Source: Oscillospiraceae bacterium
GTDB lineage: Bacteria; Bacillota; Clostridia; Oscillospirales; Ruminococcaceae
Reading direction: 5' to 3'
DNA: 64,000 nucleotides
NCBI GenBank assembly: GCA_017430465.1
Contig: JAFRMZ010000276.1
Span: 3,957-67,956, forward strand
The notes under the pieces were generated by a model that did not search any database, had not been told where the DNA came from, and saw only the letters and a program-made list of their open reading frames with translations. Both the position numbers and the translations under genes were made by a program. Below are positions 4,671 through 51,648 of this stretch, piece by piece (within the stretch, counting starts at the first letter, position 1; each line of letters begins with the position of its first letter).

Positions 4671-4850
4671 TTATACCAAACCAACAATCATTTTCATCAT
4701 GACAAGAGCATCTTCAGAATCCAGAATGCCGTTGCCGTTAAAGTCGATATAAGGAATTCTGTCAGGGGAAATATCTTCTTTTCCGAGAATTGCCTTATTC
4801 ACGGTGATAACGTCCAGAATATCGAGATTACCGCTTCCGTCAGCATCGCC
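4671..4850 (-). repeat. dockerin-coding repeat copy B
   Basis: See 3087..3266. Confidence 0.85.
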
Positions 4851-6210: not shown

Positions 6211-6390
6211 TCAGACCAGTCCGACAATTTTTTTCATCATGATGAGAGCATCTTCAGAATCCGGAATGCCATTGGAATTGAAATCAATATGGAAAATTTT
6301 ATCAGCAGAAATATTTTCTTTTCCGAGAATTGCCTTATTCACAGTGATAACGTCCAGAATATCAAGATTACCGTTTCCGTCAGCATCGCC
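6211..6390 (-). repeat. dockerin-coding repeat copy C (more diverged)
   Basis: Same 180-nt dockerin-coding unit as 3087..3266 and 4671..4850, with noticeably more substitutions. Confidence 0.7.
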
Positions 6391-32320: not shown

Positions 32321-32352
32321 TTTTATCCAAAAACAGAGAGGTGGAAAAGTAA

Positions 32353-34005
32353 ATGCTTTCATTTGATATTACTGATAAGAATATCCGAATTGTTAAAGGT
32401 ACAGAAAGCAGCAACAAAATCAGAATCACTGCTGCTACTGAACTGGAACTCAACGAATCCGTTATTGTTAACGGCCATGTAAATGACATCAACCGTGTCG
32501 CTGGTATGATTAACCGTGCTCTGAAAGATGCCAATATCGCCGACAAGGAAGCCGTTATTTCAATTTCTTCCAACCAGACAGTCTTCAAAGAACTGATGAT
32601 TCCTCCGAATCCGAAGGAATCGGAATTTATGAAGAATGTCCGCTTAGAACTGAAAAATCAGATTAATATTGACGATTCTTATGCCGTGGCCTATGTTGTT
32701 GTCGGTGAGCCGGAAGATGACGAAAACGGCGGTAAAGTACAGAAAATTCTTGCTACTGCCTGCCCGCAGGATGTAATAGACAGCTACAAGAGAATTTTCA
32801 ATAATCTTAATATTCAGTTGAAATCTATCATGATTGGCTGTAACGCTATCACAAAAGTACTGCTTGCAGACGGCAAAAATAAAGCCAAAATGCCCTTGCT
32901 CGCTGTACAGGTGGATGCAAACTTCATCAGCCTGAACCTGTATGAAAACAATACACTGTCATTCTCCCGTTTCGCTTCTATTGACCCGGAAGACTATGAC
33001 CATCCTGATGATTATATCTTTGAAGCTGTTAACGAAAATATCTACCGTATGCTTCAGTTCGCAAGAATCAGAGGCTCGGAAGAAATTAGAAACGTTGTCT
33101 TCTACGGCGATATTGATGCACAGCCCGATTTGTATAAGCGGGTTCAGGAAGAACAGAAATCTAATGATATTGAAATCAGCCGTCTGGAAGCACCAAACCA
33201 GATTCACGGCCATCAGAATCTGAATTTCTCACTGTATGCCAACGCTATCGGCGGTATGTTCAGACGTGACAAGCTGACAGAACATATCAATCTGCTGGAA
33301 ACAGAAGCTATCGGAAGCGGTATTGCAGGAAAAGTTCCGCAGGATGACCACTCTTTCAATATCGTTGCAATCGCCGGTGTCGCTTTTGCTGCCGTGGTTG
33401 TCGGTGTTGCATTTGGTGTGTTGGCTGGTATAGATGCCAACTATAAAAAGCAGACCGCTGACCTCCGTGCAACGATTGATTCTCCGGAAACCGCTGCAAA
33501 GCTTCAGCAATATGATGACTTGCAGGTGATGAAAGAAACCGTCCATAACTATACTGTAAATATCGTCAATGCAAGAGATGCGTATAACTCTCAGCCGATA
33601 ATCAAAGAATCTGTCTATACCGCTGTCGAAGAAGCACTCGAAAATGTGATGTCACAGACAGATTCTACCTCCGAATCTCCGGAATACTCCATTGATTATG
33701 CAGATGGCGTGCTCACTGTTCCTGTTACGATTACTTCTTCCGAAGAATTCGCCCAGAAGTATCCTACTAATCTGGTACAGTATCTCTATGAAACCTATGG
33801 CGAAGAAGCTACTGATGCAGAAAACCGTTTCTTCTCCAGCGTAGAGTATACGGGCTATGATGTAGATATTATAACTGGTGATAACAATCAGCAGACACAA
33901 AAAATTTCTTTTGAACTGGCTCTGACACTGCGTCCTGAACAAGTGCCGGAAATCATTGAAGAAGAGGAAACTGTTGCTGAAGAAACCACTGCGGAAGCAG
34001 AGTAA
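32353..34005 (+). CDS. pilM: PilM-like actin-fold pilus assembly protein fused to a TM segment and an extracytoplasmic PilN-like region
   Basis: 550 aa. PilM-like N-terminal ~320 aa, TM FNIVAIAGVAFAAVVVGVAFGVLAGI, then a ~190-aa acidic extracellular region. Confidence 0.75.
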   Translation: MLSFDITDKNIRIVKGTESSNKIRITAATELELNESVIVNGHVNDINRVAGMINRALKDANIADKEAVISISSNQTVFKELMIPPNPKESEFMKNVRLELKNQINIDDSYAVAYVVVGEPEDDENGGKVQKILATACPQDVIDSYKRIFNNLNIQLKSIMIGCNAITKVLLADGKNKAKMPLLAVQVDANFISLNLYENNTLSFSRFASIDPEDYDHPDDYIFEAVNENIYRMLQFARIRGSEEIRNVVFYGDIDAQPDLYKRVQEEQKSNDIEISRLEAPNQIHGHQNLNFSLYANAIGGMFRRDKLTEHINLLETEAIGSGIAGKVPQDDHSFNIVAIAGVAFAAVVVGVAFGVLAGIDANYKKQTADLRATIDSPETAAKLQQYDDLQVMKETVHNYTVNIVNARDAYNSQPIIKESVYTAVEEALENVMSQTDSTSESPEYSIDYADGVLTVPVTITSSEEFAQKYPTNLVQYLYETYGEEATDAENRFFSSVEYTGYDVDIITGDNNQQTQKISFELALTLRPEQVPEIIEEEETVAEETTAEAE

Positions 34006-34027
34006 TCAAAAAGGAGTGTGATACACC

Positions 34028-34861
34028 ATGATGCGTGAAATGAGTTATAGAGACAAAATGATTCTTCTGATTATCAGTGTGATTATTATTCTGGCTGTCG
34101 GCTTCTTTGCACTGATTCGCCCGAAATATAATTCACTGGTGGCAGACAGAGCTACTTATGAAGAAACTAAGACCGAATGGGAAGGCATTGATGCAAAATT
34201 ACAACAGATTCCCGTCCTCAAAGAAGCTATCACGGCAGAATACAAAGATTCCAGCAAGATTGCTGAAATGTTCGTCAGTGATGTGTTTCAGCCCGTCAAT
34301 GATACATTCGATAACCTGAAGGCAAATTATGTTCTCGAACAATATATCCAAGAGAAAATTGATGAAAGCGAACTGAAAATGAGAAGCCTTGAAATTGGTG
34401 GTATTTCTTCTCAGAATCTGGATTACTACTACTATACCCCTGATGTGCTGACTTATTCTTTGCTGGAAAGTGCCGACGTTAACGGCAATTATGCTCAGCA
34501 GGTAACAGATTTGCTGAAAACTAGCACAACTCTTTCCGAAAGAGAAACCGCAGAAGTAATGACAAATACTCTCACTCTTAACCTGTCCGGCAAGAAAGAA
34601 AGTCTCATGGCCTTCCTCACTAAGATGATTGAAGAAGAAGAAAATGCTGTACGTGTTACCAGCGTTTCTATTGAAGACTATACTTTCGGCGAAGGCCAGA
34701 CACAGACAATTACTGAACAGCAGACAAATCCTGACGGTACTGTTACTGAAGTGACAAGAGAAGTTCCGCTTGCTTCTGATGGTCAGGGTGAATCTGAAAT
34801 GGAAATCAGTATTACATTCTACAATGCAATGCCGATTGACCAGCCTGTTCTCGGCGATTGA
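34028..34861 (+). CDS. PilO-like bitopic pilus assembly protein
   Basis: 277 aa. N-terminal TM (MILLIISVIIILAVGFFALI), coiled-coil and C-terminal domain. The call rests on position and topology. Confidence 0.55.
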   Translation: MMREMSYRDKMILLIISVIIILAVGFFALIRPKYNSLVADRATYEETKTEWEGIDAKLQQIPVLKEAITAEYKDSSKIAEMFVSDVFQPVNDTFDNLKANYVLEQYIQEKIDESELKMRSLEIGGISSQNLDYYYYTPDVLTYSLLESADVNGNYAQQVTDLLKTSTTLSERETAEVMTNTLTLNLSGKKESLMAFLTKMIEEEENAVRVTSVSIEDYTFGEGQTQTITEQQTNPDGTVTEVTREVPLASDGQGESEMEISITFYNAMPIDQPVLGD

Positions 34862-34900
34862 GGAAAGAAATGAGACACTTCATCGTGAAAGGTGGTTAGA

Positions 34901-37534
34901 ATGATGAAGGAGAAAACAACAAACCCGAAACGTGTCAAAGGTACAGTTCTGTTTACAGTTGTTTCTGTCATGATGGTGCTGATTGTCTTCCTGACAGCAA
35001 CACTCGCACTGGCAGTCACCGCCAACAACAGAGCAGTGAATAAACTCACAAAATCTCAGACCCAGCAAACTGCAAAAGCCGCCGTACATTCTATTATGGC
35101 GGCAATGCAGAACGATGCTACGTTTGCTTCTAAAATCAATGATGTAGCGGCAGGTTCGGGCATTACGCTCGGACAGGATGCAATTCAGTTTGATGATGCC
35201 TCTCTTGGCAGAGTGTCTGCGGCATCTATTGAGTATTATGGAAACGAATATGTTCTGGATACAGATAACACATCTGCAACATATAACCAGCTTGTTTCCA
35301 GAGATATTCTCAAGATTTCCGCAACCGCAACACAGGGCAGAGAAAGTTCTACCGTTACTGCCTATGTACTGAAAAAGAAGAATATCGAAACGAATGATGA
35401 CGGTCAGAACAGCGGCTTCGTGGCAACTGGTGCTGCCGGCATGGATAACCACGTTTCTTCATTCGGCGGTACTTATCTGGGATTCAATGAACTTTACAAA
35501 GACCCGACCCAAGTTTCTGATATGAGTTTCTCCGTTGCCAACGGTGAAGCGATTGAAACAGATATGCAGGTAAATGGTAACTTTACTGTTAGCAATGGTA
35601 CTTTAGATTTAGTTGTCAAAAAGCCGGGTACAGGTATGACTGTTTGGGGCAATTTCATTTTAAATAAAGGTATGAATGTAATAACTGTTAATGCAACCCC
35701 TGATTCTCTTGATGGTTTGAGTTATACACAGATTCCTTATGTTTATGTAGAAAAAGAACTGAAACTGAATTTTAGTGATAATGATAAACAATTTGGCACA
35801 CCGGGAGTTCCGCTCAATGTTTTCTGTGGTTATGTAACTACCGGAGATAATGAAAAGAAAATTTCTGCAAATGTCTATTGTTATGATGAAAATCAGACTT
35901 CTAAATTAAATACCCAAACAATTGCAAGTGGTTTATATCACTGGGCTGCTAATGTTCTGGATAGTTCTGCATCTTTAGAATCTGGTAGTTTCTATACTAA
36001 AGGCAGTTTGGAAATTAATGCAGAAGCTAATTTTTCAGGTGATGTTGTTGTAGAAAAAGATTTAACAATTAATGGAAATGTCAATATTTCAGGTGATTTG
36101 AAAGTTGCAGGTTCTATTACAGTAAAGGGTGGTAATCTGAATGTATCCGGCACTATTTATAATGACGGATATGCAGGGGCTTCTCCTCTGTATCCCGGAC
36201 TTACTAGAGTTGATGGACATTATGAATTAAAGGCAGGTTATACACATACGCAAGAGACAGAACGGGTGGAATTGCTTCAGAATACCAATATTCCGAATCC
36301 GTGGAATGCTTCTCAGCAAATGTTTGTAAAGGCAGTTGTTTTCAATCAGGATACTGGTGAGGTACTTTGGTATGAACAAAGTAATGACTGCATACTGACT
36401 TTGGAATCTGATGGTCAGGTATATGGACAATATAACTGGGGAAAATGGGTTGTTTATACACCCGGAACTTACGATGTATATAAAGATGCTTCTGGTAATG
36501 TAGTGGCTGAGTCAGAAGCAAATGACTGGATTCCCACACAGTATTATGATGCATCAGGCAATCCTGTAACTGTAGCTTCTTTATTCCCTGAGGAATATGA
36601 AAAAGATGTCATTCTTGGTCAAACACTGCTGGATGGAAAATCTAAATCTGAAACACAGATTGTCAAGACCGTTCAGGAAGTTCTGAGCAATACTAGCAGT
36701 AACCCCTATAGTGCTCCGAATTCTGTTCCGGATGAACATCAGGAAAGAGTTACTAAAAACGTTATCAGCATTAATGGAACTGGAAATTCAAACAATGGTT
36801 CTTATACTGTCGCATCTGGCGGCGATGCTACTATTATTACACAAGTACCCGGTGAATCCGGCAGCTTTACTATCACAGATTCCTGCACGCTTTCTGGTTC
36901 TTCCTTCAAGCAGGACCTGATTCTGAAAGCAAAAACAGGTGAAGAAATCTGGGTTGTCATGAATGGCTTTACATTTAGCAATGCCGGCGGTCAGCTGATT
37001 GTTGATGATACAGATTCCAATTATCAGGGTAAAGTCAACGTGCTCCTGACCGGAGACCTCAAGTTCTCCAGTAACGGACAGTATCCGATTGTTACTAAGA
37101 AAATGGAACAGCTGTTAAGTTCTACTGAAGCGTTTAGCATTGACAATGGTGTGCTCAGAGACAGCGCAGGCAATAAAATCAGCGAAGTCAATCCGATTAA
37201 ACTGAATATTTATTCTGATGGTGCACATACTCTGCACTTGAATGAAAGTGGTACAATGTGTGCTAACATCAGAGCACCATATTTGACAGTAGAAATTGCT
37301 TCCGGCGGTGGTGCAGCCGCAACTAATTCCGCAATCTATTACAATGGCTTCAATACACAGGCTGATGAAAATTCAAAGAATTTAGGATGCATTGGCTGCT
37401 GTATCGTAAAAGATTTTAAGTCTACCAATAACTGGGTACTCCTGTATGTTGGTAAAAAAGGCGCAACCGGCGGCGATGAATTCAAAGACGCTTTGATGAA
37501 TAACTGGAGCGTCCGCTATTACGAAAACTATTGA
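34901..37534 (+). CDS. giant PilX_N-like pilus-associated protein (candidate tip or adhesin subunit)
   Basis: ATG 34901 lies 5 nt after GGTGG. The N-terminus KRVKGTVLFTVVSVMMVLIVFLTATLALAV is pilin-like but lacks Glu+5. Beta-helix-like repeats GNFTVSNGTLDLVV and SGDVVVEKDLTINGNVNISGDLKVAGSITVKGGNLNVSG. Confidence 0.75.
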   Translation: MMKEKTTNPKRVKGTVLFTVVSVMMVLIVFLTATLALAVTANNRAVNKLTKSQTQQTAKAAVHSIMAAMQNDATFASKINDVAAGSGITLGQDAIQFDDASLGRVSAASIEYYGNEYVLDTDNTSATYNQLVSRDILKISATATQGRESSTVTAYVLKKKNIETNDDGQNSGFVATGAAGMDNHVSSFGGTYLGFNELYKDPTQVSDMSFSVANGEAIETDMQVNGNFTVSNGTLDLVVKKPGTGMTVWGNFILNKGMNVITVNATPDSLDGLSYTQIPYVYVEKELKLNFSDNDKQFGTPGVPLNVFCGYVTTGDNEKKISANVYCYDENQTSKLNTQTIASGLYHWAANVLDSSASLESGSFYTKGSLEINAEANFSGDVVVEKDLTINGNVNISGDLKVAGSITVKGGNLNVSGTIYNDGYAGASPLYPGLTRVDGHYELKAGYTHTQETERVELLQNTNIPNPWNASQQMFVKAVVFNQDTGEVLWYEQSNDCILTLESDGQVYGQYNWGKWVVYTPGTYDVYKDASGNVVAESEANDWIPTQYYDASGNPVTVASLFPEEYEKDVILGQTLLDGKSKSETQIVKTVQEVLSNTSSNPYSAPNSVPDEHQERVTKNVISINGTGNSNNGSYTVASGGDATIITQVPGESGSFTITDSCTLSGSSFKQDLILKAKTGEEIWVVMNGFTFSNAGGQLIVDDTDSNYQGKVNVLLTGDLKFSSNGQYPIVTKKMEQLLSSTEAFSIDNGVLRDSAGNKISEVNPIKLNIYSDGAHTLHLNESGTMCANIRAPYLTVEIASGGGAAATNSAIYYNGFNTQADENSKNLGCIGCCIVKDFKSTNNWVLLYVGKKGATGGDEFKDALMNNWSVRYYENY

Positions 37535-37550
37535 TAAGGAGGTCTGCTGA

Positions 37551-37970
37551 ATGAAAATTTTCAAAAAGCCCCGCAAACTGAAAGGCATGACTCTGGTAGA
37601 GATAATTATTGCATTGTTTGTGTTTGTGGTTGCTTCTGCCCTCATGGTGAAAATAGGTTCAGTCGCTTCCACTTTGCTGAAAAATTCCAGCCATGTCGAA
37701 AAAAGAACTTCTATTGAAACCCCGCTTGCCGAAAACGGCAATACTGCTTCCGACTTTGTAGAAAATGACAATCTGAAAGTAGTTGTTAAAATTCCCGGTT
37801 CTACTGTAAACGTCAGAGGCAAAAGCTATACAACTGCCAAGCAGGTAGTCGGAAATGAGTTTGCAGATTCTTTCATCACCAATGCAGATATTGAATATGT
37901 GGAATTTGACCTGACACAAAAAGGCGGCGGCGGTATTTGGGAAGAACCAAGCGAAACCGAAACCACGTAA
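37551..37970 (+). CDS. minor pilin (prepilin-type N-terminal cleavage/methylation domain)
   Basis: 139 aa. KLKG/MTLVEIIIALFVFVVAS with Glu+5. AAGGAGG RBS. Confidence 0.85.
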   Translation: MKIFKKPRKLKGMTLVEIIIALFVFVVASALMVKIGSVASTLLKNSSHVEKRTSIETPLAENGNTASDFVENDNLKVVVKIPGSTVNVRGKSYTTAKQVVGNEFADSFITNADIEYVEFDLTQKGGGGIWEEPSETETT

Positions 37971-37985
37971 CAGAGGTGTGCGGAA

Positions 37986-39038
37986 ATGAAGAAACAAAAT
38001 AGAGTAAAAGGTTTTACGTTGATTGAATTAATCATCGTAATGGCAATATTCGGGGTAATTATGTTCGGTGCATTGCAGTTGTTAACTCCTGTCGGAAATA
38101 TTTTCCAGAAGTCCTATAAAACAGAAACAATTTCTGCTGCCGCACAGAATATCGGAAATTATCTTGAAGATGCCCTCCGCTATGCAGATGCCGTGCAGAT
38201 TACACCCGATGATATTGTAAAAGCAGACGGTGAAATTGATACTGCGGCATTCAACAGCATTATGGCCAGCAGAGATGGTAATATTTATCAGAAATCTGCT
38301 ACATCCGGTGACATGACCTACGAATCCGGAGATATTTATGTTCTGGAAATCGACAATACCGCAGGCGGAACTATCAGACGCTGGCAGTATGATTATGTTG
38401 TCGGTGACAATACCTGTCCTGATGCTACCCAGCATAAAACAGCAACCATCAATGACAATGCCAGCTATGATACAGGCGAATATGTTGTCAATCGGGCGCA
38501 TTATACTGATTATCATTATAATATTTCACTTGGTATTTTTGCACTGGATAATAACAGCACAAGCGCAACTTATCAGCAGCTTGTCAAGGATGACGGCTAT
38601 TACAGCAGCTTTACAGATACCACACTCCAGATGTTCGGACGTGATAATTTTGGTCTGACAATTACTGCATTTCCCTATACGCTGAACAGTGACGGCACTG
38701 TAAAGGAAAATGCTCAGAATGGTACACTTGGAAGCTGTACTTATGACACAGCTTATCTTTATACTGCAAGTGTTGGTTTCACAAACCTGAAAAAAACATC
38801 TACAGTCCATAAGTACAACTGGATTGACCATGATAAAGACGGCAATACAGTAGCATGGCATGTGCCCACTGATGATGAATTCACTGCAGATAAAACAAAC
38901 AATTACAAGTATATCGAATCTGAACAAACAAAACTGTTTAACTGGTCCGGTGCACTGAGCACAGATATGCATGAACTGAAAGAAATTCCGAAGTTCTATA
39001 TTATCTATACTTATCCGGGCAGTAATATTGTCAAGTAA
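37986..39038 (+). CDS. large minor pilin (prepilin-type N-terminus)
   Basis: 350 aa. RVKG/FTLIELIIVMAIFGVIMFGAL with Glu+5. Confidence 0.85.
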   Translation: MKKQNRVKGFTLIELIIVMAIFGVIMFGALQLLTPVGNIFQKSYKTETISAAAQNIGNYLEDALRYADAVQITPDDIVKADGEIDTAAFNSIMASRDGNIYQKSATSGDMTYESGDIYVLEIDNTAGGTIRRWQYDYVVGDNTCPDATQHKTATINDNASYDTGEYVVNRAHYTDYHYNISLGIFALDNNSTSATYQQLVKDDGYYSSFTDTTLQMFGRDNFGLTITAFPYTLNSDGTVKENAQNGTLGSCTYDTAYLYTASVGFTNLKKTSTVHKYNWIDHDKDGNTVAWHVPTDDEFTADKTNNYKYIESEQTKLFNWSGALSTDMHELKEIPKFYIIYTYPGSNIVK

Positions 39039-39052
39039 GCAAACAAAAATAT

Positions 39053-39090
39053 CGGCAGTCGGAAGATTGCTCTCCGGCTGCCGGTTTTTT
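39053..39090. terminator. terminator between the pilin operon and convergent pilD
   Basis: Imperfect stem cggcagtcgg / ccggctgccg followed by TTTTTT. Confidence 0.6.
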
Positions 39091-39098
39091 GAATTTGT

Positions 39099-39989
39099 TC
39101 AGGCAAATGCCTGAGTCGGGTCATAAGTAATCCAAGCGACATAAGCATCAAGAAGCTGTTCTCCGAATAGTGTACCAAGAAATAAGCCTATCGCCAGATA
39201 AGGCCCGAATGCGAATTTTGACTCTCCGCCACGTTTTTTCAGGATTGCACCGCAGACAGCGGCAATGCAGATTCCGAAAAATGCAGAAATTACCGTAGCT
39301 TTCCAGCCAATCAGCAAACCGCCGGCCGCCATCAGAATGGTGTCACCGAGCTCAATAGCACGAAAACGTTCATTAAATTTTTTTTCAATAATCGGTATGC
39401 TGATTTCTCCAATCAGGAAAAACGGCAGTCCGATACAGACGAGCCCTATCAGATGCGAAGAAAGCGGAAGATTTCCCGCTGTCAGAAATTCCGGCAGATT
39501 CCAGAAAGTCGCTTCCGAAGATAACCGGATAACAGAAAGTACAATATCCGGAACAGCAAGCAGGGCGATGAAAAACAAAATTCTCAAATCCATTTCCTGC
39601 GTATCCCAGTCAATAAAGGCGATGCAAATCAGCGCAGAAAAGAAAAAGCAATACAGAATAGTCTGCAAACTGAAATCCAGTACAGTAAAAGCAGTCAGAT
39701 AAACAATACAGTTCAGAGATTCTACAATCGGATAGCGTTTCGAGATAGGTTCACCGCAGCTCCGGCATTTGCCTTTGAGCATAAGCCAGCCAAGCACCGG
39801 AATGTTATCCCGCCAGAGAATCGGCGTTCCGCATGTCATACAGTGCGAAGAACGCTTGACAAGTGATTCGTCCTTCGGCAGACGAAAAATCACCACGTTC
39901 AGAAAACTGCCGATACATAACCCATAGAAAGATGCGATGAGGTAAAACATAATGTAAAACGGCCAATCCATAAATTCATTGTGAAGCAT
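39099..39989 (-). CDS. pilD: prepilin peptidase / N-methyltransferase (A24 family)
   Basis: Start at ATG 39989 (MLHNEFMDWPF) behind GGAGGA. GLCIGSFLNVVIFRLP, CMTCG...CRSCG, FIDWDTQEMD and GDTILMAAGG motifs. The longer ORF-track N-terminus is rejected. Confidence 0.9.
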   Translation of the reverse strand: MLHNEFMDWPFYIMFYLIASFYGLCIGSFLNVVIFRLPKDESLVKRSSHCMTCGTPILWRDNIPVLGWLMLKGKCRSCGEPISKRYPIVESLNCIVYLTAFTVLDFSLQTILYCFFFSALICIAFIDWDTQEMDLRILFFIALLAVPDIVLSVIRLSSEATFWNLPEFLTAGNLPLSSHLIGLVCIGLPFFLIGEISIPIIEKKFNERFRAIELGDTILMAAGGLLIGWKATVISAFFGICIAAVCGAILKKRGGESKFAFGPYLAIGLFLGTLFGEQLLDAYVAWITYDPTQAFA

Positions 39990-40083
39990 TGTGTATGTCC
40001 TCCTTAAAAAATCGATAATATATATATTATAGCATAGACCGACAATTTTTACAAGCGTAAAGTGAAATTTGAAAGGAGAAAAG

Positions 40084-40554
40084 ATGAAAAATTTTAATAC
40101 AGCCGATTTTCTGACAGAACAGCATCTCATCACTTCGGAACAGCGTGTAAAAATTCTTTCTGAACTTGAAAAGCCTGAACATGCCGGAATGTTTTTTCTG
40201 GAATGTGCGGTCAGTCTGGGATTTGTTCCGGAAATCGAGACTATCAAGAAAATTTCTGCTGAATTGAAAATTCCTTATCTTAATCTGAAAAATCTTGATA
40301 TTGATGAGGATGCTGTAAAACTGATTCCGGAAGAAACAGTAAGAAACTATCATCTTCTTGCAATATTGAAATCTGATAAGCTGGGACTTGTCGTGGTGAC
40401 ATCCAATCCGGACGTTCTGCCGTTTTTGGATACCATCAGAATACAGACAGGATTTTCAGTTTATCCCTGCTTTACTCATATTACCTGTATGCAGTGGGCT
40501 TTGGATGAAGTATATCTCCGGAATATGCAGTATTTTAAACCTGTGTATTCCTGA
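40084..40554 (+). CDS. stand-alone T2SSE_N/MshEN-type domain protein, paralogue of the PilB N-terminus
   Basis: 156 aa from ATG 40084 (AAAGGAG RBS). It aligns along its length with PilB residues 1 to ~150, e.g. LKIPYLNLKNLDIDEDAVKLIPEE versus LRVPYVDLGNIDIDEDAVRRIPES. No ATPase domain. Confidence 0.8.
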   Translation: MKNFNTADFLTEQHLITSEQRVKILSELEKPEHAGMFFLECAVSLGFVPEIETIKKISAELKIPYLNLKNLDIDEDAVKLIPEETVRNYHLLAILKSDKLGLVVVTSNPDVLPFLDTIRIQTGFSVYPCFTHITCMQWALDEVYLRNMQYFKPVYS

Positions 40555-40626
40555 TGAGTAAAACTGCTTTAGTTTAAAATGACATATTTTTTTAACATAA
40601 AATCAAATTGATGGAGGTAATTTTTC

Positions 40627-42306
40627 ATGAGAAACATTCGTATCGGTGATTATCTTGTAGAACAAAAGTTAATCACACAAGAACAACTGATGGAAGTGCT
40701 CGCTAAGCAGAAAGAACCGGAAAATACCGGAAAGCGTTTCGGCGAAATGGTAGTCGAATTAGGCTTTATTTCTGAAATCAGCCTTTCCAAAGCTCTGGCC
40801 GCAAAACTGCGTGTTCCCTATGTGGATTTGGGCAATATTGATATTGATGAAGATGCTGTCCGCCGTATTCCGGAATCTCTGGCAAGAAAATATACTGTTA
40901 TTGCCATCAGCATTCAGGGACGCAGACTGACAGTCGCAACCGATGACCCAATTAACTTCAATATTCTGGAAGACATCAAGATGCAGACCGGTATGGATAC
41001 GATTCCGGTACTGGCAACCAAATCAGCTATCAATAAAGCTATCGGCAATATGTATTCCATGGAGAATGTCGATGACGTTCTTGCAAGTGTAAACCAGTTT
41101 AGAGATGATGAGGAAGAAGACGATTCCAAGGACAGAATCGAAAGCGCACCTATTGTAAAGCTGGCAACTACTATCGTGGAAAACTCTTTCCGTGCAGATG
41201 CTACAGATATTCATATCGAACCGTTCAAGACATATACCAGAATCCGAATCCGTGTTAACGGCGACCTTGTAGAACTGATGAACGTATCCAATGTAGTGCA
41301 TAACGCTCTGACAACCCGTCTGAAACTGATTTCCGGCATGAACATCGCCGAAAAGCGTGTTCCGCAGGACGGCCGTTTCACACAGGTCGTTGACGGTACA
41401 ACCCTTGACGTCCGTGTATCTTCTCTGCCTATGGTACACGGTGAAAAAATAGTTATCCGAATTCTTTCCACCGGTAACATTGCCCTGAGAAAGATTACTG
41501 ACCTCGGTATGTCGGATTATAACTATCAGTTGTTTGAATCTATGATTAAATGCCCTCACGGAGTTATTCTGGTAACAGGGCCTACCGGTTCTGGTAAGAC
41601 CACTACTCTGTATGCCGCACTTGGCGAACTCGCAAAGCCGAATGTAAACGTAATCACCGTAGAAGACCCTGTAGAAAAAGCCATTGATGGTATCAATCAG
41701 GTACAGGTAAATTCCAAAACAGGTATGACGTTCGCTGCTGCGCTTCGTTCTATCCTCCGTCAGGACCCTGACATCGTTATGATTGGTGAGATGCGTGACT
41801 CGGAAACTGCCGACATCGGTATCCGTGCCGCTATTACCGGACACTTGGTGCTTTCTACCTTGCATACCAATGATGCGGCTTCTACTATTGTCCGTCTGAT
41901 TGATATGGGCGTTGCTTCCTACATGGTTGCGACTTCTCTTATTGGCGTTATCGCCCAGCGTCTTGTTAAGGTACTCTGTCCGAAGTGCAAAACCCAGCGT
42001 TTCTCTGATGAAGATGAAAACAAGCTTATGAAACTGGATGATATTTACACTCCCATCCCTGTATTTGAAGCGCAGGGTTGTCCGGAATGCAATAATACAG
42101 GCTACAGAGGACGTACTGCAATTCATGAAATCATTCACTGTACTGCCGGTATTTCTACCATCATCGCAAGAAACGGAAGCAAAGAAGAAATCGAAGAAAA
42201 AGCCAAGGAAAATGGCACAAAACTGCTCCGTGACAACGTATCTGAACTGGTTCAGAAAGGCGTTACTTCTATGGATGAGCTGGTTCGTGTTACTTACGCT
42301 GTATAA
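40627..42306 (+). CDS. pilB: type IV pilus assembly ATPase (GspE/PilB family)
   Basis: 559 aa. MshEN-type N-domain, Walker A GPTGSGKTTT, Asp and His boxes, and tetracysteine CPKC...CPEC. Confidence 0.92.
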   Translation: MRNIRIGDYLVEQKLITQEQLMEVLAKQKEPENTGKRFGEMVVELGFISEISLSKALAAKLRVPYVDLGNIDIDEDAVRRIPESLARKYTVIAISIQGRRLTVATDDPINFNILEDIKMQTGMDTIPVLATKSAINKAIGNMYSMENVDDVLASVNQFRDDEEEDDSKDRIESAPIVKLATTIVENSFRADATDIHIEPFKTYTRIRIRVNGDLVELMNVSNVVHNALTTRLKLISGMNIAEKRVPQDGRFTQVVDGTTLDVRVSSLPMVHGEKIVIRILSTGNIALRKITDLGMSDYNYQLFESMIKCPHGVILVTGPTGSGKTTTLYAALGELAKPNVNVITVEDPVEKAIDGINQVQVNSKTGMTFAAALRSILRQDPDIVMIGEMRDSETADIGIRAAITGHLVLSTLHTNDAASTIVRLIDMGVASYMVATSLIGVIAQRLVKVLCPKCKTQRFSDEDENKLMKLDDIYTPIPVFEAQGCPECNNTGYRGRTAIHEIIHCTAGISTIIARNGSKEEIEEKAKENGTKLLRDNVSELVQKGVTSMDELVRVTYAV

Positions 42307-42353
42307 TATTTATATTATCATAAAAAATTATCAAGTTTGGAGGAATCTGAAAC

Positions 42354-43424
42354 ATGGCAATTGAAATTAACAGAATACTGAACGAAGTCCGTGCTATCGG
42401 CTGTTCTGACTTGCATTTTACTTACGGAATGCCCCCTGTAGTCCGTCTGCATGGTGCGCTCAGGAGAATATCTAAATATCCGGAACTCGATGACGAAGAA
42501 ACAATGTCCATCGTTAACCAGATGACAAATGATGCCCAGATGGCAAAAGTCCGCAGACATGAAGACACTGACTTTTCATTCCAGACAACTGCCGGCTATC
42601 GTCACCGTGTTAATGTGTATTTTCAGAGAGGCCATGCGGCAATCGCTATCCGTCTTCTGAGAAATGACATTCCGACTTTGGATGACCTCGATTTACCGCC
42701 TGTTCTGGCCGATTTTGCAATGCGTCCCCGTGGCCTGATACTGGTAACAGGCCCTACCGGTTCGGGTAAATCTACCACACTGGCCGGCATGATTGACTAT
42801 ATCAATGTTCACAGAAGTGCACATGTCATCACGGTTGAAGACCCTATCGAATATGTACACTCCAACAAGCTTTGCATGATTAATCAGAGAGAAGTTGGCG
42901 ATGACGTTCCGGACTTCGCAATGGCACTGCGTGCCGCCCTCCGTGAAGACCCTGATGTTATTCTTGTCGGAGAAATGCGTGACTTTGAAACTATCAGTGC
43001 GGCTATCACTGCGGCTGAAACCGGACATCTTGTGCTTTCTACCCTGCATACCACCTCTGCGGCCGATACGATTAACCGTATTATTGATACCTATCCGGAA
43101 CATCAGCAGAATCAGATTCGTACCCAGCTCGCCGGAAACATGGTCGGCGTTGTCTCTCAGACACTGCTTCCGACTCTGGACGGCAAGGGCCGTACAGCCT
43201 GCATGGAAATTCTGAACGTAACAGATGCCTGCGCCGCTATGATTCGTGATGATAAAACACATTTGCTGTTATCGGCAATTCAGTCCGGTAAACAGTTCGG
43301 TATGATGTGCCTTGACCAGGAACTTGCACGTCTGGTGAAAAGAGGTATTGTCGGCGAAAGTGCCGCCCTCGAAAAATGCCAGAGTAAGGCTGAATTCTAC
43401 AGATTCCTGAACGGTACAAACTAA
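42354..43424 (+). CDS. pilT: twitching-motility / pilus retraction ATPase
   Basis: 356 aa. GPTGSGKSTT, ITVEDPIEY, VGEMRD and HLVLSTLHT motifs. No N-terminal GspE domain. Confidence 0.9.
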   Translation: MAIEINRILNEVRAIGCSDLHFTYGMPPVVRLHGALRRISKYPELDDEETMSIVNQMTNDAQMAKVRRHEDTDFSFQTTAGYRHRVNVYFQRGHAAIAIRLLRNDIPTLDDLDLPPVLADFAMRPRGLILVTGPTGSGKSTTLAGMIDYINVHRSAHVITVEDPIEYVHSNKLCMINQREVGDDVPDFAMALRAALREDPDVILVGEMRDFETISAAITAAETGHLVLSTLHTTSAADTINRIIDTYPEHQQNQIRTQLAGNMVGVVSQTLLPTLDGKGRTACMEILNVTDACAAMIRDDKTHLLLSAIQSGKQFGMMCLDQELARLVKRGIVGESAALEKCQSKAEFYRFLNGTN

Positions 43425-46488: not shown

Positions 46489-47511
46489 ATGTTGATTTTA
46501 GGTATTGAAAGTTCCTGCGATGAAACTGCCGCAAGTGTCGTGAAAGATTGTACAGAACTGAAATCTTCCGTCATCGCTTCACAAGCTCTTGAGCATCAGA
46601 AATACGGCGGTGTCGTGCCGGAACTCGCTTCCAGAAGACATTGCGAAAATATTCTGTCTACAGTACAGCAGGCTCTGACAGAAGCAGATGTTACAATAGA
46701 ACAGCTTGACGGCATCGCCGTGACCTATACCCCCGGATTAATCGGCGCATTGCTGGTCGGAGTGAATTTCGCAAAGGGTCTGGCTTTCGCCGCCGGAAAA
46801 CCTCTGATTCCGGTACATCATATTACAGGACATATTGCGGCAAATTATCTGGTGCATCCGGAACTGAAACCGCCTTATCTGTGTCTTGTGGTCAGCGGAG
46901 GTCATACTATGCTTGTCGAAGTAACAGAATATACAAAATTTCAGATTCTCGGCACAACAAGAGACGATGCCGCCGGAGAATGCTTCGATAAATGCGCCCG
47001 TGTGCTGGGATATCCCTATCCGGGCGGTGTGCAGATTGATAAGGCCTCTCAGACGGGCGATGCGAAAAAATATACACTTCCACGGCCGAGAGTCGCCGGC
47101 AGTGAGCTCGACTGTAGCTTTTCCGGTCTGAAAACAGCAGTCATCAATATGGTGCATCACGCCGAGCAAATCGGCGAACCTGTTGATGCTCCCTCAATGG
47201 CGGCAAGTCTGCAAAAGACAGTTTCGCAAATCCTGACCGAAAAAACAGAACTCGCTGCTCAGAAAACAGGTTATACAACCATCGCAATGGCCGGAGGGGT
47301 TTCAGCAAATTCCGGACTTCGGAACGCAATGCAGAGCATGTGCGAAAAACATAGCTATCAGTTATACATGCCGCCGCTGTCGCTCTGCGGTGATAATGCC
47401 GCAATGATTGCCTGTCAGGGGGCATATAATTTCTTGGCCGGCATCACGGCGGATGAAACGCTTAACGCTTACGCTTCGGGCACGGCTATCGGCGAAATGA
47501 AAGAAACATGA
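46489..47511 (+). CDS. tsaD: tRNA N6-adenosine threonylcarbamoyltransferase
   Basis: MLILGIESSCDETAASV N-terminus and Kae1/TsaD motifs. A GTG at 46480 is an alternative start. Confidence 0.92.
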   Translation: MLILGIESSCDETAASVVKDCTELKSSVIASQALEHQKYGGVVPELASRRHCENILSTVQQALTEADVTIEQLDGIAVTYTPGLIGALLVGVNFAKGLAFAAGKPLIPVHHITGHIAANYLVHPELKPPYLCLVVSGGHTMLVEVTEYTKFQILGTTRDDAAGECFDKCARVLGYPYPGGVQIDKASQTGDAKKYTLPRPRVAGSELDCSFSGLKTAVINMVHHAEQIGEPVDAPSMAASLQKTVSQILTEKTELAAQKTGYTTIAMAGGVSANSGLRNAMQSMCEKHSYQLYMPPLSLCGDNAAMIACQGAYNFLAGITADETLNAYASGTAIGEMKET

Positions 47512-47517
47512 AAAAAC

Positions 47518-47545
47518 GCTGTACTGAATTGAATTTCAGTACAGC
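47518..47545. terminator. bidirectional terminator between tsaD and the Wzy_C-like gene
   Basis: 11-bp perfect stem gctgtactgaa / ttcagtacagc, with an A-run before and a T-run after. Confidence 0.75.
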
Positions 47546-47554
47546 ATTTTCTGT

Positions 47555-48886
47555 CTATACTTTTTGTTCTGGTATTCTGTAAGTAAGCCCAAGTATGCAG
47601 AAAAACAATGGCGCAGTATAGAACATGGTATTCCCAAAAAAAGCAGAAACACAATAGCCAAATACTGTAACAAGTGCGGCAGTAGTATATCCGTCAAGAC
47701 AGGATTTTCGTTTCAGTGCCCTCAAAAACAGGCTCAGAATTCCGGCGATATAGCAGATTCCCGCTGGAATTCCATAAAATGCCATATATTGCAGGTATTC
47801 GTTATGTGTTCTAGTATTTTTAGCAGATTCTGTAAGAAAATCAGCAATGCCTTCTGTACCACTTCCAAGCAGAGGCTTTTCTTGGATTTTCTGTATTGTA
47901 TATTTCCAAAGTCTCCAGCGGCCGCTACCGGCTTTGCTAGCATCTTCATTTTTTTCAGCAATATTTTGAATATCTCTGAATAGTAAATAAAAATCACTCA
48001 AAACAGTATCAAAAAAGAAAGCTGCTGTCAGATTGACAGCGATATATCCCACCCAAAGCAGAACGGCTTTTTTATTGATTTGTTTCTGCATAATAAATAG
48101 CATGATAATCTGAAATATCAAAGCGAACAAACAAGCTAGAAAAGAACCGAAAGTAAGGTTTATCGCCAACATGAAAGTATTCAGCAAAAATGAAATCCAG
48201 TAAAATAAAGTCCATCCTCTTTTTTTTTCCCATACAGCCAGTCCGGCACTTGCCATAATCAGCATGGTTAAATAGTAACCATAGTGATTCGGATTTAAGA
48301 AAACAGCATTTATATAGTAATCAGGATAGTGGATTAATGGTTCTATCGTGAAAGCATAGTGATGAAGCAGTGTAGCAATGCCTATTAGCATTCCACTGAA
48401 CAAAAATGCTCGAAACAGAATCTTTTTCAGTTCAGATGTTCTGATGACTGTACCGCAGAAGAAAAATACAAGAATGTATCTCATAAAAGAAGATGATGTC
48501 TCCTCTCTCCAGATAACGCCATGTAATGCATATTCTGACCAGCCGTTGACAGAATCAGAAAGAAATATCAGTGCCGCAAGCGTTCCCAGAAACAGTATTG
48601 GCAGATATTCATGAAGTTTTCTCTTTTTTGATTCAACCGAAATTTTTCCCAGACAAAGCAGGTATACTACAAGTGCTAATACAGTTGCAATCAACGTTAC
48701 ATCTAAGATAATAAAAGAATACATCCACATAGTAAAGAAATTAATCAGCAGATATAACAATGGGGTTATCAGCGTAAGAAAAATTGGAATAAATGCAAGA
48801 AATTCAATTTCCTGCCATGTGAGTAGAGTCAAGATTTCTTTCAGCGTTTTGGCAGACTGATATTTTTTAAGAAATGCTAATTTCAT
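47555..48886 (-). CDS. O-antigen ligase / Wzy_C family polytopic membrane protein (candidate pilin O-oligosaccharyltransferase)
   Basis: 443 aa with about 10-12 TM helices. Periplasmic-loop motif GSGRWRLWKYTIQKIQEKPLLGSGTEG...RTHNEYLQYMAFYGIPAG. The ATG lies 6 nt after the pilin stop. Confidence 0.8.
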   Translation of the reverse strand: MKLAFLKKYQSAKTLKEILTLLTWQEIEFLAFIPIFLTLITPLLYLLINFFTMWMYSFIILDVTLIATVLALVVYLLCLGKISVESKKRKLHEYLPILFLGTLAALIFLSDSVNGWSEYALHGVIWREETSSSFMRYILVFFFCGTVIRTSELKKILFRAFLFSGMLIGIATLLHHYAFTIEPLIHYPDYYINAVFLNPNHYGYYLTMLIMASAGLAVWEKKRGWTLFYWISFLLNTFMLAINLTFGSFLACLFALIFQIIMLFIMQKQINKKAVLLWVGYIAVNLTAAFFFDTVLSDFYLLFRDIQNIAEKNEDASKAGSGRWRLWKYTIQKIQEKPLLGSGTEGIADFLTESAKNTRTHNEYLQYMAFYGIPAGICYIAGILSLFLRALKRKSCLDGYTTAALVTVFGYCVSAFFGNTMFYTAPLFFCILGLTYRIPEQKV

Positions 48887-48892
48887 GAATGG

Positions 48893-49402
48893 TTATTCTC
48901 CCTTTTCTGCCCAGTCGAGAACATCAACAGCAGAAGAAAATGCGGAATTTTTAGCATATCCGTCAGAAGTTTCTTCTGATTCGGTGTTATGAGGAAATGC
49001 GCCGTAATAACCCTTTGTGTTGACAGCAGTCCCTAACACTGCTTTTGCACTGACACGATAAGCGGCCGCATCAAGGTCTTCTACGCCTTTGAAATATTTA
49101 CGAATTTTTGCGGCCATAGCCTGTTCTGCTGTAGGAGAACTGCCTTCGCCGGCATCTGCTTTTTCTTTTGTCCACTGAAAATCTGTTACGGCGGAAGTGA
49201 GCACAATTCCTTCAGTATCCAGTTCAGTCAGTGAGGTGACAGCGGCATTAGAAAGTGATTTTGCGTTGGAATTGGCAGTAGAAACCTGAGCTTTCTTGAC
49301 ATATCCGAGCATGGACGGCACAAGAAGCCCTGCCAGTACACCAATAATTGCAATCACAACAATCAGTTCTACCAGTGTAAAGCCGTGTAAATTTTTTTTC
49401 AT
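48893..49402 (-). CDS. type IV pilin (PilA-like), paralogue 1
   Basis: Start at ATG 49402. MKKNLHG/FTLVELIVVIAIIGVLAGLLVPSMLGYVKKA with Glu+5. 169 aa. Confidence 0.9.
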   Translation of the reverse strand: MKKNLHGFTLVELIVVIAIIGVLAGLLVPSMLGYVKKAQVSTANSNAKSLSNAAVTSLTELDTEGIVLTSAVTDFQWTKEKADAGEGSSPTAEQAMAAKIRKYFKGVEDLDAAAYRVSAKAVLGTAVNTKGYYGAFPHNTESEETSDGYAKNSAFSSAVDVLDWAEKGE

Positions 49403-49463: not shown

Positions 49464-49492
49464 ATTATAGCATAATCAGCAACATTTGTCAA
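49464..49492 (-). promoter_or_regulatory. near-consensus sigma-A promoter of pilin paralogue 1
   Basis: Minus strand reads TTGACA (49492..49487), 17 nt, TATAAT (49469..49464), with TGC 5' of the -10 box. Confidence 0.55.
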
Positions 49493-49629
49493 GGGATGAG
49501 TGCATTTTTTCGCTATATTTAAACGTTTTCGGAAAAATATTATTCTGCTGGCATATAAAGTGTTTTTCAGCCACAACTAAAGACGGGTATCTATAGTATT
49601 TTTTGGCAGTTTATTAAATGTTTTAAGAT

Positions 49630-49705: not shown

Positions 49706-50203
49706 TTAAGAAGTAACCGTGAGAGCACCAGTAGTACCATCAATGGAAGCACTACCGCCGTTCTGAACAGCTTCCGGATAAGCACCCATGTAATTGCCCT
49801 TTTTGCAGATAGCGGCTGTGCAGGCATTCTTTACAATACCAAGTTCAACGTCTGTCAGACCCTTCAGTGTGGATTCACCAACAGCCTGTTTGAAAGAATC
49901 AACAAATGTAGTAGTAGCATCACTGCAGGAAGGTGTGCCAGCAGCAGCAACAGCAATTGTAAGCTTGCCTGTAACCTTGTTCGCCGCACTGAATACCGTA
50001 GCACCAGCAGTATCGCAGTCTGTAACAGCAGTAGCAGCAGCGTTGTAGATGGTCTTAGCGTTGGAGTTAACAGCAGACTGGTTAGCCTTCTTTACATAAC
50101 CCAGCATGGACGGTACGAGGATTGCAGCGAGTACACCGATGATTGCGATAACTACGATAAGTTCTACCAGTGTAAAGCCCTTGACGTTCTTTCTTGTTTT
50201 CAT
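49706..50203 (-). CDS. type IV pilin, Ala/Thr-rich (probable major pilin)
   Basis: 165 aa. MKTRKNVKG/FTLVELIVVIAIIGVLAAILVPSMLGYVKKA. GGAGGT RBS, own promoter and strong terminator. Confidence 0.9.
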   Translation of the reverse strand: MKTRKNVKGFTLVELIVVIAIIGVLAAILVPSMLGYVKKANQSAVNSNAKTIYNAAATAVTDCDTAGATVFSAANKVTGKLTIAVAAAGTPSCSDATTTFVDSFKQAVGESTLKGLTDVELGIVKNACTAAICKKGNYMGAYPEAVQNGGSASIDGTTGALTVTS

Positions 50204-50316
50204 AGTGAAAACCTCCTTATAATAAATAATTAATTAGTTTTGCAGTGCGTTTTTCGACTGCGTCTTCTGGAATTCACCGTTTTTATTTTTCGTACCGGTG
50301 TTTTCCTTACAAGTAT

Positions 50317-50345
50317 AGTATAGCACATGTCTAAAGTTTTGTCAA
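50317..50345 (-). promoter_or_regulatory. near-consensus sigma-A promoter of the probable major pilin
   Basis: Minus strand reads TTGACA (50345..50340), 17 nt, TATACT (50322..50317), with TGTGC 5' of the -10 box. Confidence 0.55.
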
Positions 50346-50941
50346 TACTTTTCGGAAAAAAAAACAAATTATGAACGAACTTTTACGAAATCGAAATCTA
50401 AATCGTTTAAGTTCGGGGCTTTTTCGTCAAATTGTACAATTTCAATCACGTCTTGTATACCCCTTAAAAATGCCTGAAATGCGCCGATTTGGAATGTTTT
50501 TATAGCATTCTGGATAATATTTCCTAAAATTATTCCCTTTTGTAGATGACGAAAAACAGGGCTTTTTTAGCTTCGCATTCTGTAATTGTTTGTTCACAAA
50601 TTACATATAGTATTTTCTGTTTATTTATATATTTTAAATAATCCAGTAACGTTTAAGACATATTTTATATTCAAATTTCCGCATAGTGAGAGGGAACAGG
50701 CATTGAAAAAAGCGGTTTTTAACTATGCTGTAGAAAAAGCTTGTGCTTTCTGCACAAAACAAATTTTTATAATATAATGAATATTTTTTTGAAATTCGTA
50801 TACTGTACAGAGATTCCGCCGGAAAGGATAATTTTCACCATGAATATACATAAAGTATTTTTTAAGAGATAATTACAGATAATATTATACGAATATCACA
50901 AAAAAAGCGAAAATCCGAAGCAAAATTCGTCCGCAAAAACA

Positions 50942-50970
50942 TTGACAAATTTTATTTTATGTGCTATAAT
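50942..50970 (+). promoter_or_regulatory. consensus sigma-A promoter of pilin paralogue 3
   Basis: TTGACA (50942..50947), 17 nt, TATAAT (50965..50970), with TGTGC 5' of the -10 box. Confidence 0.6.
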
Positions 50971-51053
50971 ATATTTAAGATTTAAATGTGAACAAATTAT
51001 GTACAGCATCTGAATTTATCATCCTCAATATTTCTAAGAAAGAAGGTTTTTTT

Positions 51054-51584
51054 ATGAACAAAAAAGTAAACGGTTTCACTCTGGTTGAACTGGTTGTTGT
51101 GATTGCCATCCTCGGTGTATTGGCAGGTTTGCTTGTCCCCAGTATGCTGGGCTATGTATTCAAAGCGAAAGTAAGTGCAGTAAATTCCAATGCACGTAAC
51201 CTTTCCAAAGCGGCGATTACGTCTCTTACAGAGCTTGATACGGAAGGCATAGCACTCAGTGCTCAGAACTTTGTCTGGAAAAAAGACCTTGCTGATGGTT
51301 GGGACAATAAAACAAATCATAGTGCAGAGGCGGCAATGGCCTCTAAAATCCGTAAATATTATAACGGTGTCGAAAAGCTGGACGGTGCTTTATGCAGAAT
51401 CACCACAAATTCTGTCGTAGCTGTTGCTGTAGAAGATAATTCCATGTATGGTGCTTATCCGAATAAGACGCAGGGTTCTCAGACAGAAGACGGCTATGTA
51501 AAAGACTTAAGATTCAATTTAGAAAACGCAAATGGTCAGGAACGCCTGTTAGACTGGGCGGAGAATGGCGAAATAGATTCTTAA
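51054..51584 (+). CDS. type IV pilin, paralogue 3 (related to paralogue 1)
   Basis: Start at ATG 51054. MNKKVNG/FTLVELVVVIAILGVLAGLLVPSMLGYVFKA. Shares ITSLTELDTEGIxL, KIRKYxxGVExLD and LDWAExGE with 48893..49402. Confidence 0.9.
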   Translation: MNKKVNGFTLVELVVVIAILGVLAGLLVPSMLGYVFKAKVSAVNSNARNLSKAAITSLTELDTEGIALSAQNFVWKKDLADGWDNKTNHSAEAAMASKIRKYYNGVEKLDGALCRITTNSVVAVAVEDNSMYGAYPNKTQGSQTEDGYVKDLRFNLENANGQERLLDWAENGEIDS

Positions 51585-51648
51585 AAAAATTCCCTTTCCG
51601 GATTTTTCCGGAAGGGGATTTGTTTTTTCAGATGTTTCAGTAAAAAAA

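Follow-up and report, generated by a model that had tools for sequence, protein, structure and literature searches.

A candidate O-oligosaccharyltransferase of the Wzy_C family beside type IV pilins in a strain-variable island of an Oscillospiraceae bacterium

What is a protein of the O-antigen ligase type doing directly behind a type IV pilin gene in a Gram-positive bacterium? The question arises from a 64,000-nucleotide stretch of contig JAFRMZ010000276.1 (positions 3,957 to 67,956) of an Oscillospiraceae bacterium, GenBank assembly GCA_017430465.1; we refer to this whole stretch as the window. Here a prepilin gene, which we call pilinA, is followed by the gene for a polytopic protein with a Wzy_C domain. 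A first-pass annotation of the window had proposed that this protein is a dedicated pilin O-oligosaccharyltransferase (O-OTase). We compared the protein, its operon, and its gene neighborhood with those of its relatives. In our judgment, the protein is probably a Wzy_C O-OTase that acts on type IV pilins and whose gene forms part of a hypervariable pilin island, in which it is exchanged as a cassette.

A prepilin gene and a WaaL-fold protein in one operon

The pilinA gene lies on the minus strand (48893 to 49402), from an ATG at 49402 to a TAA at 48895 to 48893. It encodes a type IV prepilin of 169 amino acids (aa) that starts with MKKNLHG/FTLVELIVV and whose N terminus matches Pfam N_methyl (PF07963; E = 2.5e-8) and TIGR02532. 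The longest reading frame reaches back to a TTG at 49576; since the promoter sits within this extension, we regard the ATG at 49402 as the real start. The promoter (49464 to 49492, minus strand) is a TTGACA-17-TATAAT element with an extended -10 (TG) and matches the consensus at 12 of 12 positions. A scan of 6.5 kb found only three such sites, two matching at 12 and one at 11 of 12 positions, one ahead of each of three pilin genes. Only 6 nucleotides (nt; CCATTC) separate the pilinA stop from the ATG of the Wzy_C gene, which runs for 443 codons from 48886 down to 47555 on the minus strand, and its ribosome-binding site (RBS), AAGGGAGAA, read off the sequence at 48896 to 48904 (minus strand), falls within the final pilinA codons. 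No convincing terminator was found between the two genes when one was looked for; the intrinsic terminator of the operon (47511 to 47552, minus strand) follows the second gene, has an 18-bp stem and a T-run, and is bidirectional, serving tsaD in a tail-to-tail arrangement. The short gap, the RBS in the pilin codons, the single promoter, and the single terminator described in the first-pass annotation were therefore all recovered. So was the lack of flanking capsule or O-antigen genes: the pair is bounded by tsaD, rimI, and polA on one side and on the other by two pilin genes, then cobO and a pair of genes for an extracytoplasmic function (ECF) sigma factor and its anti-sigma factor.

The second protein is identical to NCBI MBR0485778.1, a protein from a metagenome-assembled genome (MAG) that is named "O-antigen ligase family protein" of an Oscillospiraceae bacterium. 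It matches Pfam Wzy_C (PF04932) over residues 232 to 380, covering profile positions 2 to 149 of 149, with E = 9.9e-18 and a score of 64.8 bits, where the cut-off is 31.7. The match bears out a homology that had been proposed from loop motifs, which we find at residues 319 to 377. An AlphaFold2 (AF2) model built on 58 homologs (predicted local distance difference test [pLDDT] 93.9; predicted template modeling [TM] score 0.93) has one significant match in the PDB, the O-antigen ligase WaaL 7TPG (Foldseek, 7tpg_B; E = 2e-6; TM scores 0.59/0.64), and the structure comparison thus gives the WaaL fold. By sequence, the protein matches WaaL 7TPG at E = 2.4e-4 with 16% identity. Six residues, N200, R323, W327, P338, G341, and H361, do not vary among the 58 homologs, and three others, R359, N362, and E363, hardly do. 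In the alignment with WaaL, R323 falls on the corresponding Arg, and H361, which is part of an R-x-H-N-E motif, falls on the His of HN(D/E); this His is essential in WaaL, PglL, and TfpM (PMC3643930; PMC9829042). Basic residues concentrate in alternate loops (1 to 20, 84 to 90, 219 to 224, 266 to 274, and 391 to 400), and the catalytic loop, residues 292 to 372, is therefore predicted to lie on the extracytoplasmic side of the membrane.

The family around this protein is large, with 1,076 clusters at 50% identity (E ≤ 1e-30), and its members are mostly 430 to 480 aa long. The top profile matches in the representative library (P0242 to P0246 and P0266) are longer, about 930 to 1,120 aa, have two matched stretches, and look like tandem double Wzy_C fusions.

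Pilus linkage across the family and a strain-variable island

Gene neighborhoods were compared at 78 loci from a genome scan (mostly MAGs of rumen and gut Clostridia, plus Acidaminococcaceae, Erysipelotrichaceae, Microbacterium, and Clostridium collagenovorans) and at 8 loci from an independent Joint Genome Institute (JGI) metagenome scan for close relatives. Pilins were the commonest neighbor family of the Wzy_C genes and occurred within three genes at 15 of 79 loci. Pilus genes lie within 6 kb at 20 of the 78 genome loci and 7 of the 8 metagenome loci (together ∼27/86); as a rough estimate, a random 12-kb interval in a genome of 2 to 3 Mb would meet pilus genes ∼1% of the time. Several Wzy_C genes (WZY in the gene orders below) are embedded in pilus operons. 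The order is pilB-pilT-WZY-pilC-pilin in L034, where pilT and WZY overlap by 4 nt, and is identical in L037; pilT stands immediately upstream of the Wzy_C gene in L040. Other arrangements are pilB-pilT-pilC-pilin-WZY-pilin (L051), pilB-WZY-pilC-pilin-pilin-pilD (L067), and pilD-pilin/WZY/pilin-pilC-pilT-pilB (L059, L087, and L088). A pilin gene precedes the Wzy_C gene also in L079 to L081, L077, and L085, as it does in L051. Pilus linkage is scattered over the neighbor-joining tree, with no single clade that holds it, and the linked members span Oscillospiraceae, Lachnospiraceae, Erysipelotrichaceae, Acidaminococcaceae, and Microbacterium; M. festucae and M. saccharophilum are cultured examples with a member close to pilins. 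The synteny suspected from the window alone thus holds at the family level, with pilins as the top neighbor and several members inside pilus operons.

In three loci, a membrane protein of 800 to 835 aa with a Sulfatase domain (PF00884) is encoded between a Ser-ending pilin and the Wzy_C gene (L030:3030-5537; L043:4278-6686, minus strand; also L049). The L030 order is pilin-sulfatase-WZY, all on the same strand. This arrangement recalls PptA of Neisseria, a pilin phospho-form transferase.

At the site occupied in the window, both the pilin and the Wzy_C gene vary between strains. The nearest homologs of the Wzy_C protein are encoded on contigs L079 to L081, where the sigma factor is 96%, the anti-sigma factor 75%, and cobO 85 to 88% identical to those of the window. 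Because these genes are near-identical, we take L079 to L081 to show this chromosomal location in closely related bacteria; their Wzy_C proteins are only 41 to 43% identical to that of the window and follow a different pilin, with a terminator and a promoter in between. The C-terminal domain of pilinA has a single homolog in 5.8 billion proteins, P0241 (94%), encoded on contigs L101 to L103, where a terminator and then tsaD come after this pilinA'. Relative to this sibling strain, the window contains an additional segment of 1,384 bp (47517 to 48900, minus strand) that takes in the end of the pilinA reading frame (its last codons), the Wzy_C gene, and the terminator; the junction is clean and falls immediately past the Lys-Gly codons of pilinA. 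The GC content of the Wzy_C gene is 36 to 37%, versus 43 to 51% for the flanks. Thus, the pilin and Wzy_C segment is a strain-variable presence/absence cassette between conserved flanks. The pilinA region is 94% identical in nucleotides to that of the sibling (L101:622-1262 versus window 49538-48901), whereas tsaD-rimI-polA is 86% identical (L101:1310-5725 versus window 47516-43100), suggesting that the pilinA allele was exchanged horizontally and recently.

A look-up anchored on cobO revealed further variants of the island without a Wzy_C gene. In L099 (GCA_002449585.1, DJXD01000023.1; cobO 81% identical), it holds a serine recombinase gene, a pilin gene (L099:11101-11583, minus strand), and, in the Wzy_C position, a gene for a 577-aa polytopic protein (L099:9260-10993, minus strand), followed by tsaD-rimI-polA-pilT; the recombinase gene adjoins that of the 577-aa protein, whose N-terminal loop reads HEPWFDEMQAWE. 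A relationship of the 577-aa protein to Wzy_C was ruled out, as it has no Pfam match, no PDB match, and an hhalign probability of 0.2%. Possibly it modifies pilins in place of a Wzy_C protein; as our own speculation, it could be GT-C-like, comparable to TfpW. In L096/L097 (cobO 87% identical), the island contains a pilin gene together with a PIN toxin/RelB antitoxin pair (L096/L097:8562-9273) and adjoins a glycoside hydrolase family 3 (GH3) gene, not tsaD, which marks the locus as rearranged. The pattern resembles that of the Pseudomonas aeruginosa pilA locus, which carries alternative accessory genes.

Pilin glycosylation and its alternatives

Among known pilin-modifying enzymes, TfpO and TfpM (420 to 470 aa) modify the C-terminal Ser or Thr of their pilin, and the longer PglL (550 to 600 aa) and PglS (520 to 550 aa) modify internal sites (PMC9829042). 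Of 27 distinct pilins whose genes lie no more than 2.5 kb from a family member, 11 have a C-terminal Ser, frequently in the form -GS. Ser accounts for 9.7% of the last 30 residues of these pilins, and its excess at the C terminus has a binomial P value of 2e-5, uncorrected for phylogeny; among background genes at these loci, the share whose product has Ser or Thr at the C terminus is 8.6%. As a mark of the acceptor, this signal is only suggestive. Two other prepilins of the window fit the Ser pattern. PilinB (49706 to 50203, minus strand; promoter 50345 to 50317, terminator 49663 to 49634) has 165 aa, ends in ...LTVTS, and shares a conserved N terminus with pilins of relatives; pilinC (51051 to 51584, plus strand; promoter 50942 to 50970, terminator 51591 to 51618) has 177 aa and ends in ...GEIDS. 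PilinC is a paralog of pilinA, with 55% identity, and pilinB is 44% identical to it. Within pilinA, the acceptor proposed in the first-pass annotation, residues 138 to 156 near the C terminus, is a plausible candidate and falls on a low-confidence loop, Ser/Thr-rich at 135 to 155, of an AF2 model of moderate quality (pLDDT 74.7). An internal loop of the Ala/Ser/Pro type, GEGSSPTAEQ, spans residues 85 to 94.

We infer a pathway in which the 443-aa WaaL-fold protein would take a preassembled glycan from undecaprenyl pyrophosphate and pass it to a pilin Ser or Thr. Transfer would occur on the outer side of the cytoplasmic membrane, ahead of pilin polymerization, making the protein a functional Gram-positive counterpart of TfpO, TfpM, and PglL. 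The glycan donor would be encoded elsewhere in the genome. The acceptor could be either the C-terminal Ser of pilinB and pilinC, in a TfpO-like manner but in trans, or the internal Ser/Thr loops of pilinA, as with PglL and PglS. The Wzy_C gene itself would be an accessory, horizontally exchanged part of the cobO-tsaD pilin island that is joined here to the pilinA transcript.

Several observations weigh against this pathway. The cotranscribed pilinA ends in ...DWAEKGE and has no C-terminal Ser or Thr. Pilins of sibling loci that lack a Wzy_C gene (L096, L099, and L101) also end in Ser or Thr, so that the enrichment may simply characterize this family of pilins. The sibling strain with the near-identical pilinA', which ends in ...KGSLS, has no Wzy_C gene, so the enzyme would be dispensable for pilinA. 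At about 70% of the family loci, no pilus gene lies closer than 6 kb; this holds for Ruminococcus MAG proteins with 35 to 40% identity and likewise for the clades that are sister to the window protein (L082, L006, and L002/3/9). Two loci, L018 and L029, resemble ordinary polysaccharide clusters with phosphoglycosyltransferase (PGT), glycosyltransferase, and flippase genes and no pilins. The 64-kb window contains no PGT, flippase, glycosyltransferase, chain-length, capsule, or O-antigen gene and hence no genes for a glycan donor. As to the protein, PF04932 cannot tell ligases, polymerases, and O-OTases apart, no NCBIfam model matches, and PglL_A (PF15864) gives no match at E ≤ 0.1. This missing motif and the size of 443 aa, against 550 to 600 aa, rule out membership in PglL. 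Of the "dedicated pilin O-OTase" originally proposed, the connection with pilins is upheld at the family level; "dedicated" is not, given the many loci without a pilus gene, the polysaccharide-type clusters, and the 94% pilinA sibling without the gene.

The alternative that survives best, although we consider it unlikely, is a Wzy-type polymerase or ligase for a surface polysaccharide (capsule, exopolysaccharide, or wall glycopolymer) that has no role in pilin modification and is co-located with pilins in a recombination hot spot for surface variation. PF04932 does include polymerases, and the island also gathers unrelated mobile items, such as the serine recombinase and the PIN/RelB pair. A Bac_transf PGT fused to DUF4422, with a CoA_binding_3 N-terminal domain, is encoded directly downstream of the Wzy_C gene in eight loci (L041:7481-9682 and the +1 gene of L018, L019, L026, L027, L029, L031, and L032), and a PGT occurs within the locus in two more. 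Glycosyltransferase-like genes come after the fusion in the mapped loci (Glycos_transf_2 was confirmed in L041), and the genes together are, judged by their domains, a compact cassette for a lipid-linked glycan, which could equally supply an O-OTase. A flippase-like gene is present in L029, a second Wzy_C paralog lies nearby in three loci, and a polymerase-type setting with glycan-synthesis partners occurs in L018, L029, L019, L031, and L041. Minor-pilin genes, on the other side, stand upstream in four related loci (three of the eight PGT loci and L039). Since O-OTases are often encoded in glycan loci too, the PGT-linked loci do not separate an O-OTase from a polymerase. What counts against a polysaccharide enzyme is that the window and L034, L037, L040, L051, L059, L067, L087, and L088 are without glycan-synthesis, flippase, and chain-length genes, that the protein matches a ligase, WaaL, in its fold and its Arg/His loop, and that there is no obvious rationale for a polymerase placed 6 nt after a pilin or overlapping pilT.

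We give still less credence to a general, PglL-like O-OTase that would serve many extracytoplasmic proteins, with pilins as one class of targets or mere neighbors. Such an enzyme would agree with the finding that most members, including the close Ruminococcus MAG relatives, stand alone in varied housekeeping contexts, as well as with the internal loop of pilinA and its lack of a C-terminal Ser; PglL of Neisseria is likewise not encoded beside pilE (PMC3643930). However, the protein has the size of TfpO and TfpM, not that of PglL, and lacks the PglL_A motif. Tight embedding in pilus operons across many lineages, the C-terminal Ser enrichment in neighboring pilins, and the variation of the Wzy_C gene as a cassette along with the pilin also favor an enzyme for pilins over a general one.

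That the gene is an accessory with no present function in this strain, whether newly inserted, hitch-hiking, or decaying, could be argued from its presence/absence with a clean junction in the last pilinA codons, its low GC content, and the change of the pilinA end from ...KGSLS to ...KGE through insertion (or reciprocal deletion), but this is very improbable for a frame that is intact and full length, keeps all family-invariant residues, has a good RBS and expression coupled to a perfect promoter, and was recovered with identical sequence from several samples.

Neighboring genes, implications, and known systems

The machinery for type IV pili is encoded in the window at 31124 to 43424, parted from the pilin genes by polA-rimI-tsaD. 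It comprises genes for a PilC-like protein (31124 to 32320), PilM (32353 to 34005), a T2SSM-like protein (34028 to 34861), an 880-aa protein within the pilus operon that has only a subthreshold bactofilin match (34892 to 37534, plus strand), a 350-aa minor pilin (37986 to 39038), a prepilin peptidase (39099 to 40247, minus strand), PilB (40627 to 42306), and PilT (42354 to 43424). PilinB and pilinC are divergent across an AT-rich spacer of 780 nt (50204 to 50987; 27 to 30% GC), and the promoters of the three pilin genes resemble one another, visible as inverted matches. We ruled out that pilinA and pilinC form an invertible switch, as sharp repeats are absent and the inverted similarity (71% over 214 nt) is that of diverged paralogs. 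A search of known RNA families around the pilins for riboswitches and other RNA elements found nothing near gathering scores. Three dockerin-bearing proteins are encoded on the minus strand (277 to 2889, 4671 to 6095, and 6211 to 7413), one of them with BNR/sortilin repeats, and would indicate that the host builds cellulosome-type complexes. Together with a sortase and a PASTA kinase, the dockerins are consistent with a fibrolytic Gram-positive host; no lipopolysaccharide genes were found in the 64-kb window. A 579-aa protein without a Pfam family is encoded at 11494 to 13233 (plus strand).

Type IV pili enable rumen and gut Clostridia to adhere to cellulose and to hosts. A glycoprotein nature has long been ascribed to the Ruminococcus albus pilin, as the first-pass annotation had noted: GP25 is cited as "glycoprotein of 25 kDa" (PMC3796261) and as the main subunit of the type IV pilus (PMC3796261; PMC6916266). 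No enzyme has been assigned to this modification. We put it at about an even chance that a large, hitherto unrecognized Gram-positive family (extending to Negativicutes and Actinobacteria), with ∼1,000 clusters at 50% identity and mostly from rumen and gut Clostridia, supplies the missing type IV pilin O-OTases. Its genes would be exchanged with pilin alleles in a hypervariable island, with some variants replaced by the unrelated 577-aa polytopic protein, and the family would explain the report on GP25, now decades old, and identify the enzyme. If this is true, pilin glycosylation by Wzy_C proteins reaches beyond the Proteobacteria, gut commensals have a means of strain-level surface variation relevant to phage or immune evasion, and new O-OTases become available for glycoconjugates, possibly with different glycan and acceptor rules. 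The clean pair of sibling strains with and without the Wzy_C gene is a natural experiment.

A survey with a PglL hidden Markov model (HMM) found members only in Gram-negative bacteria, with 21 of 31 adjacent to pilins (PMC3643930). Wzy_C O-OTases have been proposed for S-layer proteins of Gram-positive bacteria, namely, WsaB of Geobacillus stearothermophilus and WsfB of Paenibacillus alvei (PMC2943079), and the enzyme class is therefore not new in monoderms. No pilin O-OTase of Gram-positive type IV pili is described in reviews from 2019 to 2025 or was found in a targeted literature search of incomplete coverage. The earlier statement that no pilin-specific OTase had been defined in monoderm bacteria is in line with this for pilins, with the S-layer enzymes as the reservation.

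WaaL of Cupriavidus metallidurans (7TPG) shares the fold of the window protein (TM ∼0.6) and the aligned R...HN(D/E) loop. It differs in its acceptor, lipid A-core, which monoderms do not make, in sequence (16% identity), and in the N-G-T-R-G segment, whose Arg aligns with a Phe here (family consensus NxTFG). WsaB and WsfB, compared by description only, are likewise proposed Wzy_C O-OTases of Gram-positive bacteria that use lipid-linked glycans; their targets are S-layer proteins, and their genes lie in slg clusters with no pilin or pilus-operon link. PglL (Neisseria and Burkholderia) and PglS (Acinetobacter) are also Wzy_C O-OTases with a conserved Arg/His catalytic loop, act on pilins at internal Ser residues in flexible loops, and are often unlinked to the substrate gene, like the orphan members of the family described here. 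Unlike the window protein, they are longer, PglL carries the PglL_A motif, and all known examples are Gram-negative.

The closest parallel is with TfpO (PilO; P. aeruginosa 1244 and Acinetobacter) and TfpM (Moraxellaceae), and it is drawn from size, gene order, and pilin ends, not from sequence. These enzymes belong to Gram-negative hosts, whereas the host here is a monoderm Clostridia bacterium and most genes of the family do not lie next to a pilin gene; TfpO draws on O-antigen units, of which a Gram-positive bacterium has none. The Ser/Thr end that serves TfpO and TfpM as the acceptor is common in pilins beside family members and absent from the cotranscribed pilinA. On the other hand, TfpO and TfpM are likewise polytopic Wzy_C proteins, of 420 to 470 aa compared with 443 aa here, and, like the window protein, they are encoded directly downstream of a type IV pilin gene, in a pilin locus that differs between strains and can carry one or another accessory gene.

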